Source: Bdellovibrionota bacterium (lineage in GTDB: Bacteria; Bdellovibrionota_G; JALEGL01; DATDPG01). Taken from it: DNA of 64,000 nt. Of the stretch, positions 40,288-46,539 are shown piece by piece (the stretch's first letter is position 1; every line of letters begins with the position of its first letter). Below the pieces are notes generated by a model. It was not told where the DNA came from. It made no database searches and was given only the letters and a program-made list of their open reading frames with translations. Both the position numbers and the translations under genes were made by a program. The DNA is taken from positions 1,153,317-1,217,316 of the forward strand of contig OY764265.1 in the NCBI GenBank assembly GCA_963668355.1. Reading direction: 5' to 3'.

Positions 40288-43200
40288 TTGGCGGGGAAGT
40301 TTCGTATGAAGACCAGAGATCTGTTGACCAAGGTGTTGTTTTCTTTCCTTTTTGGGCTTTTGGCTTTTTCAGGACAAAGCTTTGCCCAACCGGTATGGCC
40401 ACATTATTTTCAAAATCTTCACCCGAAGGTTTCCTCCACCGAAACCCAATATCTTCTGAGAGAGTTTGCCGATGAATGTGCGGCCCTGGACGTTCTCGGC
40501 TCTCAGCGCTACATCAGTTGGCAAAATCGCGGGACCTCAAGAAAAGATCGAGCGTTGGAGGAAGAATTCGATCAAGCTTTTGAAGAGCTCAAACAATTGA
40601 GTTTTGACATCGTTGATCGCCTGGAGCCCTCCGAACTTTTTCTTTTGCTTCAACAATTTCCGTCTCTGGCCTCGCGCTTGGGAATTCCACAATACGCACA
40701 CAATTTGGTTTCGATGGTCAGCATCGGGAGACCCAAGTTCGGAATTGGCGAACTGGAAAAATTCGTTCGCCATCGCACGCTCGTGCGCTTTCTGGAATTT
40801 TCGGAGGAGGAAGATCCCGAATTTGTCGCGTGGCTCTTAGAGATGTTGATCAAGGCGGAGGCCCATTGGGAGTTGTATGGGAATCTTCTAGCGCGAATGG
40901 ATGCTCTTGAAAGTCAGCGGCAGTACTTGGGCTATACGAACGATGAAAAAATAGACGAATTGAGAAGACACACCGAGTTTTATCAAAAGGCAAAGCCTCA
41001 ATTGGCTAGAGAAATTTTGGAATTGAAAAGGGCGACCGATCATCCCCGTTATGAAGCGTGGTTGAATTTGGCGCAAACCTATTTAGATGAATCTCCGGAC
41101 CTTCCGCAAAACATCGGTGAAGGTTTTGGTCTCCCTTTCTATTATGGTTTTCGTTCGGGCTTAGACAGTCTGGCCAGCGTCTTCCATCGTTTTGTTCTGA
41201 AAGATCCAAAGAAAGCCAGTGAAGCGACACATAATGCCGTCAAGTGGCACGAGCGCGCGTTTGCCAGCTCTCATTATTCTGGACTTCGTATGGACCGGCT
41301 TTTAAAGGGCGCAACCTTCCGTCCCGAAAACAGCCCCACTTTAGTTGGCGCAGGGGCCTCTGAAACTTTTTTGGGCGTTTTTGCTTGGCTGGGAACCGCA
41401 AGCGGTCACATCATGGAAGGGGATATCGGACAAGGGGCCAAGGTTCTTTTCATTGATTTTGCCGATGGGCTGTTTTCGTTGGCGGCGGCGCGCGACGACT
41501 TTGTCGAAGACTGGGCCGAGGTCGCTCAAATGCGATTGCAGGCGCAACTCATTGAGGATGAAACGATTCGTCAAGAAAAGATCATTCAAGCCGGCCAAAT
41601 GGCCTTGGCCAATCGACAAAACGGATATTTCAATCCCCATTATTCCGCGCCTTATGCCATCGGTGCGGTGATGGGAGCCAAAAAGGCATTTCGTTTGATG
41701 GTGGTTCCAATTCGATATCTTCGCTCTTTAAATCCTCGGATTCAGGAAGCCCAAGCCCGAGCAGGGCTGGAAACTTCTTCACGAGGAGGTCAGGGTTTTG
41801 AATGGAAACCCTTAGACGAACAGTCTCGAATACAAGTAGAAAGCCTCATTGAAAGTCTCCGAAAATCTGAAAATGCGGAATTGCAGGCCTTGATCCAAAA
41901 TGTGGAAAAAGGCGAACCTCCAGCCGGTCTATTTCCGGATGAAGGCGGAAGCGCAGCTCCTTCTCTTTCGCCACGCCGAGGAAGTGGCGGAGGTGGACCC
42001 GCAACGCTCGTCGAGTCTCGTCCCACGACGGGCTCACAAACTTCCACATCAACCTCTGTGGGTCAAAGCGCACGCACCCTTCAGCCATCACAGCCCTCTC
42101 CCTCCCAAGGGCCGGTCGCCCAGATTCAAACTCCGACGCAAATCGCTCAAGGTCTCGTCGTCGGAAATGTTGAACTCTTACATGCGAATGAAAATGAAGG
42201 TGAGGAAACCAGCGGGGAGGAAAGCTCATCGGAATTCATTGAACGTTTAACGCGCGAAGTTCGTGAATTACAGAAGCGATTGTTCGATTTCATTCCAGCT
42301 CTGGCTGAAACATTCGGCAGCTTTGAAAACTGGGTTCTGAAAGGCATGCCCCTACCTAGAGAAAGCGAGTTGCATGTTCGAGAAATTCGTCGCTCGATTC
42401 AATTGCCACCTCCTTCTCCCGAGACTATTCCCGATCAACTCATCTTCAACTCGCCAGAATATTTTCGTTGGCTTTTTACAGCCGTCGAAGCCTTAGACAA
42501 AGCCGAGCAAGAAGCTCTAACCGACGCGCTTCAAGGGCTAAACCTCATGACGGAGAGGGGCGGAGATGTCGCGTCCGACGCCACGCGCTTAAGTCAAATT
42601 TTTCAGGGTGTTTCAACCCTCAACTTAAGCGACTTTGATGGAACTCGTTCGCGCCTAGAAGATTTGGGAGAAGCGCGCAATACAGAAGTCGATCAACGCG
42701 CGGAAGAACTCCATGAACTGGAAGCCAACTTGGGCCTACATACGGTAAAAGTTTCGGGAAGACCGCTGGTTTGGCCGGAAATAGGATTGCTTGGTAGTTC
42801 TCAGGCCTCTCCACCACTCGCCATTGGAGAAGCCGGAGCGGCCATGGCTATTGATGGTGTGCCCTCGGAAGAATATCAAGGCTTCATTGATCAGCGTTCA
42901 GGTTTCAATCGTAGTGAACTCGATTTACAAATTCGCATTTTACTCTCGGCCATGGTGTTGCACGGCGAGTTTTTGGAAGCCTGGCGGCCTCAAGCTCAAA
43001 ACGGAGTGACACACAAAATTGCCTATGACGTTAAGCTCAAAGATGACAGCGACGGCGAAACGATTTTAAAACTTCAATTATGGCTTCAGGAAGTCGTAGG
43101 TGAGCGTGCCAAAGTTGTGCAAAGCCATTTCATTGAAGCTGAAAATGTAGGCCATAAAAATGTTTATCGCATTGACATCGTTCCGGGGGATAAAGCCGAC

Positions 43201-46200: not shown

Positions 46201-46539
46201 TTAGTTAGCAAATTCAAACGGGGCGTACCGGAGTTGAGTTTTAAAATCATCAGCCGAGAAACAAATAAAGCAGAAAACCAAGTTCATCGAATGGCAGAAG
46301 TTGAAATTCTGATCATCGAAGGAACTTTCCCGGGGTTAATTGAGGAAGCCGACCTTCGCATTCACTTAGATGGAAATCATGCTCAAGTCACAGCTCCCGA
46401 AGGAGCAACGCCAGAAGAAATTCGAGCTGTCGAATTTCAAAATACGGTGCTTGATATCGAGCAACGCAGGCTCAATGTCATGCGGCGCTTTGCCAAATCA
46501 AACCCATTCGCCATCGTCATACCGGAGAACTTAGATTAA
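40288..46539 (+). CDS. Giant exported multidomain protein: helical N-terminal region, Ser/Thr/Pro-rich linker, HAD-like (sucrose-phosphatase-type) segment, SPS-like GT4 glycosyltransferase domain, degenerate P-loop kinase-like C-terminus
   Basis: Signal peptide MKTRDLLTKVLFSFLFGLLAFSGQSFA (start 40288 TTG or 40306 ATG); GDSGND near nt 43265; GT4 THGHHGDPVPQKVKDTGGQT near nt 43960 and AEAMAAG C-terminal motif; Walker-A-like GAYGFGRT near nt 45970. Confidence 0.75.
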   Translation: MAGKFRMKTRDLLTKVLFSFLFGLLAFSGQSFAQPVWPHYFQNLHPKVSSTETQYLLREFADECAALDVLGSQRYISWQNRGTSRKDRALEEEFDQAFEELKQLSFDIVDRLEPSELFLLLQQFPSLASRLGIPQYAHNLVSMVSIGRPKFGIGELEKFVRHRTLVRFLEFSEEEDPEFVAWLLEMLIKAEAHWELYGNLLARMDALESQRQYLGYTNDEKIDELRRHTEFYQKAKPQLAREILELKRATDHPRYEAWLNLAQTYLDESPDLPQNIGEGFGLPFYYGFRSGLDSLASVFHRFVLKDPKKASEATHNAVKWHERAFASSHYSGLRMDRLLKGATFRPENSPTLVGAGASETFLGVFAWLGTASGHIMEGDIGQGAKVLFIDFADGLFSLAAARDDFVEDWAEVAQMRLQAQLIEDETIRQEKIIQAGQMALANRQNGYFNPHYSAPYAIGAVMGAKKAFRLMVVPIRYLRSLNPRIQEAQARAGLETSSRGGQGFEWKPLDEQSRIQVESLIESLRKSENAELQALIQNVEKGEPPAGLFPDEGGSAAPSLSPRRGSGGGGPATLVESRPTTGSQTSTSTSVGQSARTLQPSQPSPSQGPVAQIQTPTQIAQGLVVGNVELLHANENEGEETSGEESSSEFIERLTREVRELQKRLFDFIPALAETFGSFENWVLKGMPLPRESELHVREIRRSIQLPPPSPETIPDQLIFNSPEYFRWLFTAVEALDKAEQEALTDALQGLNLMTERGGDVASDATRLSQIFQGVSTLNLSDFDGTRSRLEDLGEARNTEVDQRAEELHELEANLGLHTVKVSGRPLVWPEIGLLGSSQASPPLAIGEAGAAMAIDGVPSEEYQGFIDQRSGFNRSELDLQIRILLSAMVLHGEFLEAWRPQAQNGVTHKIAYDVKLKDDSDGETILKLQLWLQEVVGERAKVVQSHFIEAENVGHKNVYRIDIVPGDKADAADYVANQLAEADASLPMITAGDSGNDVGLVTAALNAEPVPLDQVLREIVSGKPLSSNVFIAVANRSSAISDEIHRVSIPATTYAGSVREKDHDKLRGVYFIQNEAGVLKVILDDAEMKTHRFDLPEHRHGPESILNAYELIFRPQDSSERDPGEFHDLLGEEGGRPRIWLEKEVVVSPTNTPNSSEAAMQAETLTWLKGVLRQRSRLLPGATQAMIDDVAEDVFWNIFVANEIPIHRGKNPNSEQLTLLHVTTHGHHGDPVPQKVKDTGGQTVWTLEHTKEYARQGHIAFQIGRMHGTYPRAESLLQTENGGRAWLVRVKSGEPDFIRKEELYDHIPKLALATTAVAALAGADVVIGNYAEGMTIANEVAFRTGIPVVDISHSLGKVKALGLDRSLSDSRAIWKPDYNFGTRFGLEELALLSAHGVVHNSPFEEEQQQHLYHLPKREYIVLPGGAVKPFFDARANPADAETLAQFGLEPGKYIIWWGRIAEVKTPERLVRVLGEAKALNPELMDGYKAVIIGGNPANPPEDQAATEDRIRAAAEEYGLSFGVYAEGSTPKVDVIRVEAQDQDKIAPLTAASLTYVGMQDYDAFCMGAAEAMAAGKAPIISRESGEAPADPSLRFGNESVLGMGIAKMLTDGRNAFLVNPRNSAEAGARLTEMVNDEALRLSMEQAAAEYADAEFNFRPLAQRQVAQVEDVLARSKSQKQNPLLGAHRTSPIFLGQQPRIKEIHHTLADRALSRVRKHVQRENARGNRAVIVLEGADEMAVALALSVQLNRFNLDARVVPIGDKNDVLHAAENLLALKNAAELETALTHVSVTSLSTSEVFDDTPLPLVDAEALFVMAPPGWKETYAQDLGAVTFDAFLDMAVADALSIQPNHIVGPGELPIPMEVHAKKAEQIAAFLTDKVPVGEKKVITISGAYGFGRTEIARLVADHLADMGRYVTVTSLDNWPILSPDKNDARRRYLFGEGGQKGLETLDEFIGTQHEIDFNGVNELVSKFKRGVPELSFKIISRETNKAENQVHRMAEVEILIIEGTFPGLIEEADLRIHLDGNHAQVTAPEGATPEEIRAVEFQNTVLDIEQRRLNVMRRFAKSNPFAIVIPENLD

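Follow-up and report, generated by a model that had tools for sequence, protein, structure and literature searches.

The closest described kind of protein to the one reported here is found among the sucrose-phosphate synthases (SPS) and sucrose-phosphate phosphatases (SPP): stand-alone SPS (2r60, 6kih), stand-alone SPP (1s2o) and, above all, the two-domain SPS of cyanobacteria and plants, in which a GT4 glycosyltransferase is joined to an SPP-like HAD-IIB domain. The cytoplasm is considered the home of SPS/SPP-type enzymes and of GT-B nucleotide-sugar transferases alike. HAD-fold phosphatases that are exported through Sec to the periplasm include class B AphA and class C e(P4), which act on organic phosphate esters, belong to other HAD subfamilies (DDDD-type, no C2B cap) and are small single-domain proteins. 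Here we describe a protein of 2077 amino acids, hereafter the megaprotein, encoded in a 64,000-nucleotide stretch of a Bdellovibrionota bacterium genome (contig OY764265.1, positions 1,153,317 to 1,217,316), which we call the window. Its gene occupies positions 40306..46539 of the window on the plus strand, with the stop codon at 46537-46539, and residues are numbered from the ATG at 40306. Read from its sequence, the protein runs from an export signal through an orphan helical domain, a linker, a HAD-IIB domain, an SPS-like GT4 domain and a pseudokinase to a kinase-like domain with a Lys-to-Arg change, and is thus built of two modules: a phosphatase module and, behind it, a GT4-kinase-remnant module.

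Like a two-domain SPS, the megaprotein combines on one polypeptide an SPS-like GT4 domain with an SPP-like HAD-IIB domain bearing GDSGND, and SPS and sucrose synthase are the closest solved GT4 structures by sequence (4rbn and 6kih for the megaprotein). Unlike a two-domain SPS, it has the order reversed, with the HAD domain N-terminal to the GT4, and it possesses a signal peptide, a 500-residue N-terminal domain, two kinase remnants and an Asp in place of the first Glu of the E-x7-E motif. Its scores lie far below the cut-offs of the SPS equivalog models (TIGR02472, 59 bits versus 576; TIGR02468, 12.6 versus 1144) and of the SPP equivalog (15 bits versus 184). We therefore class it as SPS-like, neither an SPS proper nor a canonical member of the GT4-kinase family to which the product of the adjoining gene belongs. 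AphA and e(P4) provide a precedent for exported HAD phosphatases, and neither gave a sequence match to the megaprotein in domain-library and PDB searches.

The interpretation that we put first, with moderate confidence, is an exported fusion of an active SPP-like phosphatase, a diverged and maybe active SPS-like GT4, and dead kinase parts. We infer its catalytic activities, substrate and final location along the following lines. After translocation via Sec, the GT4 domain would bind, and possibly glycosylate, a phosphorylated acceptor outside the cytoplasm; the fused HAD domain would then strip the phosphate from that sugar-type product. The synthase-then-phosphatase logic of sucrose synthesis would in this way be carried on one exported polypeptide, with the kinase remnants and the N-terminal domain acting as structural or tethering parts.

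The case for a working phosphatase comes from residues 641-1105 (42226..43620, plus strand), where a helical lead-in precedes the HAD-IIB (sucrose-phosphatase-like) domain. The initial annotation of this locus had recognized GDSGND here, had missed a DxDxT motif I and had taken the protein for a degenerate copy. GDSGND is confirmed as motif IV (43264-43281, residues 987-992, including D988 and D992), but motif I is present as DFDGT (42631-42645, residues 776-780). Motif II is VSGRP (42751-42765), in which SGR covers residues 817-819 with S817 as its serine, and motif III is GDKADAADYV (43186-43215), with K963 as its lysine. An exhaustive HMMER search of 1.84 billion representative proteins with residues 1-1190 returned three relatives only. 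P0107 (1346 residues) is encoded on the same 2.92-Mb contig, outside the window, and comprises a signal peptide, the N-terminal domain, a Gly/Ser-rich linker, the HAD domain and a different C terminus; P0108 (544 residues, sample SRR31012004) has a signal peptide, about 145 residues of other sequence and a HAD domain with 58% identity; and P0109 (413 residues, metagenome-assembled genome (MAG) 'Co_bin.265') consists of the HAD domain alone; the last two belong to other bacteria. In the alignment of these four proteins, motifs I and II, the motif III lysine and motif IV are all invariant, as is each of the D, D, G and T of motif I, at 46-58% sequence identity. With all four catalytic motifs present and conserved, the segment cannot be called degenerate.

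Profile comparisons, with scores below the curated cut-offs, point the same way. Every one of the four homologues matches the HAD-SF-IIB model TIGR01484, from position 3 to position 212 of its 221 positions and with E = 8.6e-8 at best; the megaprotein match opens at profile position 3, two residues ahead of D776. All four also match S6PP (PF05116). A PDB profile search aligned K963, D988 and D992 with K163, D186 and D190 of Synechocystis SPP (1s2o). The insert of about 140 residues between motifs II and III has a size that would fit a C2 cap; the AlphaFold2 (AF2) model of the domain has a confidence (pLDDT) of only 49. By sequence, then, this is a divergent yet catalytically complete SPP-like HAD-IIB domain, and since its four motifs are intact it is probably active, most likely as a phosphatase on a phosphorylated sugar or sugar-like compound. 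An hhalign comparison of the HAD alignment with the SPS-SPP fusion P0106 yielded no signal, as the target consisted of one sequence only; a scan of the genome collection with the HAD profile found only the already known MAG, and a metagenome scan found nothing. The stretch that joins the HAD domain to the GT4 (residues 1106-1188; 43621..43869, plus strand) contains no hydrophobic segment, and the lack of an internal signal peptide at this junction indicates a true in-frame fusion.

Export is predicted from the N terminus. Residues 1-27 (40306..40386, plus strand), MKTRDLLTKVLFSFLFGLLAFSGQSFA, form a predicted Sec-type signal peptide and are followed by QP; the call was made with a home-made heuristic (positively charged n-region, hydrophobic h-region, small residues at -3 and -1). 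The n-region MKTRD has a net charge of +1, the 10-residue Kyte-Doolittle maximum is 2.66 and cleavage is predicted between SFA and QP. The signal peptide aligns with that of P0107, and the two residues after the predicted cut, Q28 and P29, are invariant between these in-genome paralogues. By the same heuristic, signal peptides are also found on P0108 and on P0099 and P0100, two uncharacterized metagenomic relatives of the GT4 region of about 800 residues each; those of P0099 and P0100 are clear, MRRVLRSIARATAILLVVALPSLAHA followed by N and MNRGGFTARMRAWLITGLSAALVLVSTTAWA followed by Q.

Cysteine content points in the same direction. The megaprotein has 2 cysteines in 2077 residues (0.10%), against a mean of 0.64% in the canonical GT4-kinase family and 0.73% in 16 other proteins of the window; about 13 would be expected, giving a Poisson probability of about 2e-4. 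P0107 has a single cysteine, within its signal peptide. The enzyme parts of P0099 and P0100 are cysteine-free, and each protein has one conserved cysteine pair in its N-terminal extension. A low content of this kind would be expected of proteins whose compartment is oxidising and free of ATP. The cysteine pairs (CAGPDC at residues 148-153 of P0099 and CGPGQTC at residues 125-131 of P0100) are the sole cysteines of these proteins and suggest a disulfide loop in the extension.

The signal peptide and export proposed by the initial annotation are thus supported by the three-part Sec-type N terminus, and export is made more probable by the conservation in P0107, the signal peptides of P0108, P0099 and P0100, and the depletion of cysteine. 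An N terminus that is instead an uncleaved membrane anchor or a start-codon artefact, leaving the enzyme domains facing the cytoplasm, would suit the cytoplasmic type of those domains, and we consider it highly improbable. The open reading frame (ORF) begins only 18 nucleotides before the ATG, and of the plausible in-frame starts only the last internal TTG (codon 19) would remove the hydrophobic core, which argues against a start-codon artefact. Conservation with P0107 begins at the signal peptide and cleavage site. In all five signal-peptide-bearing proteins the positive charges lie N-terminal of the hydrophobic core, which predicts an N-in, C-out orientation. The cysteine depletion, and a decay of the kinase that is confined to signal-peptide-bearing proteins, are likewise unexpected for a protein facing the cytoplasm.

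The SPS-like GT4 (GT-B) domain covers residues 1189-1670 (43870..45315, plus strand). Pfam Glycos_transf_1 matches residues 1444-1580 with 38.8 bits against a cut-off of 26.4, and a hidden Markov model (HMM) built from 94 canonical proteins of the neighbour's GT4-kinase family matches residues 1189-1771 (E = 8e-123), running colinearly through the GT4 and into the first part of the kinase. Recognizable motifs on the plus strand are DTGGQT (44002-44019), SHSLGKVK (44344-44367, holding H1348), WGRIAEVK (44659-44682, holding R1454 and K1459) and DAFCMGAAE (44974-45000, residues 1557-1565). The last confirms the reading of the C-terminal E-x7-E motif as D...C...E, a D-x7-E with a cysteine inside. 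A lineage-specific insertion of about 19 residues lies after the E-x7-E helix, within 45034-45102 (plus strand).

Structure and mutagenesis of the T. elongatus SPS (TeSPS) allow these residues to be read functionally. There, H158 contacts the glucose 6-OH and E331 the 3-OH, and neither the H158A nor the E331A mutant is active; the ribose is bound by E339, the UDP phosphate by R249 together with R253, and the phosphate of sucrose-6-phosphate by R105 together with R178 (PMC7264703). In our alignment, H158 corresponds to H1348 (SHSLG versus HSLG), E331 to D1557 and E339 to E1565; R249 and R253 correspond to R1454 and K1459 in WGRIAEVK, and R105 and R178 to K1295 (FIRKEE) and R1378 (FGTRFG), with basic residues retained at all four positions. 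By this alignment the GT4 keeps the contacts to the donor phosphate, ribose, glucose 6-OH and acceptor phosphate, and the sole change is that of the first Glu to Asp. This change is chemically conservative, so a loss of GT4 activity does not follow from it.

Behind the GT4 the same family HMM matches a second time, at residues 1853-2058 (E = 1.3e-11) and with its kinase part only, which means that the kinase region is present twice. The initial annotation had described one C-terminal P-loop kinase-like domain with the Walker A GAYGFGRT; the motif is there, and the domain bearing it is the second of two. Copy A (residues ~1671-1852, 45316..45861, plus strand) is a pseudokinase with internal deletions, in which LEGADEMAV (45487-45513, plus strand) replaces the family's P-loop, GESGxGK[ST]. 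Copy B (residues 1853-2077, 45862..46536, plus strand) is more complete: its Walker A is GAYGFGRT (45970-45993, plus strand; residues 1889-1896), with Lys changed to Arg, and SLDNWP (46054-46071, plus strand) retains the 'LD' of the family GDxFF motif. We defined invariant columns as those conserved in at least 95% of the GT4-kinase family, 98 in the GT4 and 54 in the kinase. Copy B keeps 20 of the 54 kinase columns, and the megaprotein copies overall keep 18-20. By BLAST, copy A comes closest to the pseudokinase region of the exported protein P0099 (E = 1e-10); the best match of copy B is the kinase domain of the adjoining gene's product, by 52 versus 49 bits, a margin that is not meaningful. 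Both kinase parts look dead, copy A for lack of a P-loop and copy B for its Walker A change.

These motif states bear on a second explanation, in which the megaprotein is an exported pseudoenzyme scaffold whose GT4 and kinase parts are dead and which only binds a ligand or a partner; the initial annotation, which proposed a partly inactivated binding scaffold, counted the HAD segment among the dead parts. Neither kinase copy has a functional Walker A lysine, and for the kinase parts the proposal is supported. The GT4 has lost 32 of its 98 invariant positions. A check of 98 family proteins with a length of 600 residues or more showed Glu at the first E-x7-E position, which the megaprotein alone lacks; at the equivalent position, E331A abolishes TeSPS activity (PMC7264703). 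The substitution is conservative, however, and either Asp or Glu is used at this position across glycosyltransferases (PMC7264703), with H1348, E1565, R1454 and K1459 all retained. P0099 and P0100 keep 89-95% of the invariant GT4 positions, which would be unexpected for mere scaffolds, and HAD motifs that are intact and invariant at 46-58% identity argue for a working phosphatase. For the GT4, with the TeSPS-critical residues kept apart from one conservative change, an inactivated scaffold is unproven; for the HAD domain the proposal is not supported. We consider a scaffold of this kind unlikely.

The relation between export and kinase loss extends to P0099 and P0100, the latter being the best BLAST match of the megaprotein GT4. 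Like the megaprotein, both have a signal peptide, have lost the P-loop, carry deletions in the kinase region similar to those of copy A and are cysteine-poor. They differ from it in having another N-terminal extension, related between the two, of 150-170 residues with the cysteine pair; in lacking the HAD domain and a second kinase-like domain; and in a nearly canonical GT4 with an intact E-x7-E motif. Of the 98 columns invariant in the GT4 they keep 93 (P0099) and 87 (P0100), yet of the 54 in the kinase no more than 20, so that after export it is the GT4, and not the kinase, that selection maintains. The P-loop GxxGxGK[ST] is absent from 3 of 3 signal-peptide-bearing family proteins (megaprotein, P0099 and P0100) and present in 116 of 116 full-length relatives without a signal peptide (94 canonical and 22 from metagenomes), counts that refer to sequences (about 119 full-length proteins) and not to independent events. 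The 22 came from a metagenome scan with P0099 and P0100, which gave 36 loci; all 22 fully readable genes among them were canonical, with the P-loop intact and no signal peptide. In neighbour-joining trees, P0099 and P0100 were sisters in 155 of 200 bootstraps.

A bolder version of the favoured reading, which we advance only tentatively, holds that a GT4 clade and its SPP-like partner moved outside the cytoplasm together, losing the kinase and keeping both chemistries, with the megaprotein as their fused 'Rosetta-stone' form. The exported HAD protein P0108 and the exported GT4 protein P0099 both come from sample SRR31012004, on contigs with closely similar GC contents of 65.7% and 65.1%, respectively. 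If the two share one organism, the megaprotein would be a Rosetta-stone fusion of proteins that are separate elsewhere, which would argue that phosphatase and transferase act on one metabolite, as SPS and SPP do. If this version were true, a GT-B transferase of nucleotide-sugar type would either draw on an unconventional donor in the periplasm, for instance a disaccharide or a sugar-1-phosphate, or act as an effector delivered into another cell.

Several points weigh against the favoured reading and its extension. The assignment of P0108 and P0099 to one organism is presumptive. The clade of megaprotein, P0099 and P0100 appeared in only 38 of 200 bootstraps. P0109, a HAD homologue, has no signal peptide. 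Membership of the HAD domain in its group comes from motifs and sub-threshold scores (TIGR01484, 20.3 bits versus a curated cut-off of 41.8; S6PP, 16.2 versus 20.3), and the AF2 model, made from three sequences, is not usable at its pLDDT of 49. The megaprotein GT4 keeps 66 of the 98 invariant columns, far fewer than P0099 or P0100; within its E-x7-E motif Asp replaces Glu, Ala replaces Pro and Cys replaces Gly, and the insertion of about 19 residues sits near the donor-binding loop. The GT4 of the megaprotein may be inactive. We know of no nucleotide sugars or ATP available in the bacterial periplasm, which leaves no obvious donor for a classical GT4 reaction and speaks for the scaffold. There may be three ways out of the donor problem: the GT4 only binds its ligand, which is the scaffold proposal narrowed to the GT4 and kinase parts; it uses another donor; or the protein acts in another cell.

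The last of these leads to a third explanation, in which the megaprotein is an effector or toxin that is exported through Sec and then delivered into a prey, host or competitor cell, with the N-terminal domain as a translocation module. A target cell offers nucleotide sugars and sugar phosphates, and the enzyme would rewire or drain that metabolism. Chlamydia secretes the GT-B enzyme GlgA. Cytoplasm-type, cofactor-dependent domains stand behind signal peptides in three lineages, and P0099 follows two other signal-peptide-bearing genes, one of FAD/NAD(P)-binding type, at its metagenomic locus. The family is also extremely rare, as is typical for conflict-related genes, and P0107 joins the same N-terminal domain to other cargo, a modular layout with a constant N-terminal part and a variable C-terminal one. 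We nevertheless give this explanation a low probability: the genes near that of the megaprotein include neither a secretion system nor an immunity gene nor a mobile element, the N-terminal domain matches no known translocation domain, and no N-extension domain common to the proteins of the P0099 locus, P0108 and the megaprotein was detected.

The N-terminal domain (residues 28-530, 40387..41895, plus strand) is mostly helical and common only to P0107, with 31-32% identity over its length. It has no sequence match in Pfam, NCBIfam or the PDB. An AF2 model from two sequences is all-helical at low confidence (pLDDT 48), and Foldseek comparison of the model with the PDB gave generic helical matches only (E > 0.08, TM-score < 0.2). 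A disordered, low-complexity linker rich in Ser, Pro, Gly, Thr and Gln follows at residues ~531-640 (41896..42225, plus strand), defined by composition; P0107 carries an equivalent Gly/Ser-rich linker. The helical N-terminal region and the Ser/Thr/Pro-rich linker of the initial annotation are both recovered, the former as about 500 residues predicted to be helical by that low-confidence model. P0107 and the megaprotein are 39% identical across residues 23-1119, and since they share the N-terminal module and not the C terminus, the same module carries different C-terminal cargo. The C terminus of P0107 carries two repeats of about 100 residues, GRPIRVTLKDGTTVEGTF and GRPVRLTSLNGGYMIEGTF, without a Pfam match.

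We considered, and rejected, the idea that the megaprotein has a delivery domain at its N terminus in common with P0099, P0100, P0108 and the other two exported proteins of the P0099 locus: only the extensions of P0099 and P0100 are related, and marginal BLAST matches among the N-extensions (E 0.01-0.05) found no HMM support. At that locus (L008, 6816-13046), three genes with signal peptides stand in a row, P0099 being the last. The first encodes 617 residues with a FAD/NAD(P)-binding-type domain and the other encodes 382 residues without a known domain; a cytoplasmic HAD-IA gene (200 residues) comes after P0099. The arrangement resembles an operon for exported enzymes that are of cytoplasmic type. 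In the surroundings of P0109 (L006/L007, 800-3700 and 10001-11242), export-apparatus genes of FliP/FliQ/FliR/FlhB type lie about 6 kb from its gene, accompanied by a gene of the sigma-70 family and one for a small TPR protein.

The megaprotein gene itself is real. A single uninterrupted ORF runs from 40288 to 46539 on the plus strand; counted from its in-frame TTG at 40288, six residues upstream of the ATG, it has 2083 codons, which is the length first proposed, and the 2077 residues read from the ATG are exactly those of P0001, a protein recorded at NCBI and ENA on the 2.92-Mb contig. It could be asked whether the gene is an assembly artefact or a decaying, functionless fusion pseudogene. The C-terminal part is strongly diverged, the kinase region is doubled and degenerate, and this exact protein is present in the databases in one copy only. 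We find this scarcely credible, because 2083 stop-free codons at 49% GC are impossible by chance, the HAD motifs are invariant and the HAD-GT4 junction is clean, with no leftover signal peptide. In addition, the GC content of third codon positions is even along the segments of the gene (0.41-0.49) and similar in neighbouring genes, so the gene looks native and not recently acquired. A word-based search with the whole megaprotein found nothing beyond itself, and promoter, terminator, tandem-repeat and Rfam scans were uninformative.

The adjoining gene, on the minus strand at 46536..48644, encodes P0002, a canonical GT4 joined to a PRK/uridine-kinase-like domain (702 residues from its ATG; 703 residues as the ORF 46536..48647). 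The two genes are convergent and share 4 bp at their stop codons (46536-46539), too tight an arrangement for an intervening terminator. As first annotated, this protein has intact motifs (EPFGMAPAE and GESGSGKT); its closest PDB relative is the H. orenii SPS 2r60. The megaprotein had been taken for a degenerate copy of this neighbour. The two do belong to one family, with 31% identity over 575 residues (E = 1e-75), but other members are closer to the megaprotein: in a BLAST ranking of 105 family proteins the neighbour takes 80th place, and it is sister to the megaprotein in 0 of 200 neighbour-joining bootstraps, results on which we reject a recent duplication.

The family of the neighbour, with proteins of about 720 residues, is common in MAGs labelled Thermodesulfobacteriota, Syntrophales, Myxococcota and others. 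The megaprotein resembles it in being colinear with the family HMM over the GT4 and the kinase start, and in its second kinase match. It differs in that canonical members have no signal peptide and keep intact GESGxGK[ST] and E-x7-E motifs, none of which holds for the megaprotein, and in that the megaprotein has no more than 66 of the 98 GT4 columns and 18-20 of the 54 kinase columns. Among canonical members in other genomes we found no conserved partner gene and no adjoining megaprotein; a scan of the genome collection with the neighbour returned nothing, and a literature search found no paper on a GT4-uridine-kinase fusion or an exported SPS-like enzyme.

The genes flanking the megaprotein gene are an ABC importer, the canonical paralogue and a symporter. 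The importer (35958-40149) lies upstream on the same strand, ending 156 bp before the megaprotein ATG, and is made up of a TOBE_2-containing ATPase, a binding protein and a double permease fused into one chain; the models that match them best are the putative 2-aminoethylphosphonate components PhnT2, PhnS2 and PhnU2, all three below their cut-offs. Three further ORFs (1298, 837 and 674 residues; 29519-35925 and 48877-50901) have signal-peptide-like N termini and no Pfam match above threshold. The window opens with dnaN, recF, gyrB and gyrA (924-8160), an order that is often found beside the chromosomal replication origin, and its cumulative GC skew climbs over nearly its whole length. Elsewhere the window encodes a 693-residue multihaem cytochrome of c7/c3 type (55047-57128) and a Ser/Thr kinase with a C-terminal TIGR02266 ('gmx') match (13915-15579). 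The labels borne by named relatives of the neighbour (Thermodesulfobacteriota, Syntrophales and Myxococcota) point to a lineage of 'deltaproteobacterial' type.

Taken together, the three GT4-family proteins with export signals are exactly those in which the kinase has lost its ATP-binding loop and the transferase has been kept, and one of them, the megaprotein, is fused to an intact and very rare exported HAD phosphatase. Two orphan modules are defined by this analysis, the 500-residue N-terminal domain and a HAD subfamily of four sequences. Should the transferase prove inactive, the megaprotein would offer a clean natural example of domain decay versus survival after a move to an ATP-free compartment. 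Should it be active, either an extracytoplasmic donor exists or delivered effectors act on the sugar-phosphate pool of another cell, and either would be new biology.

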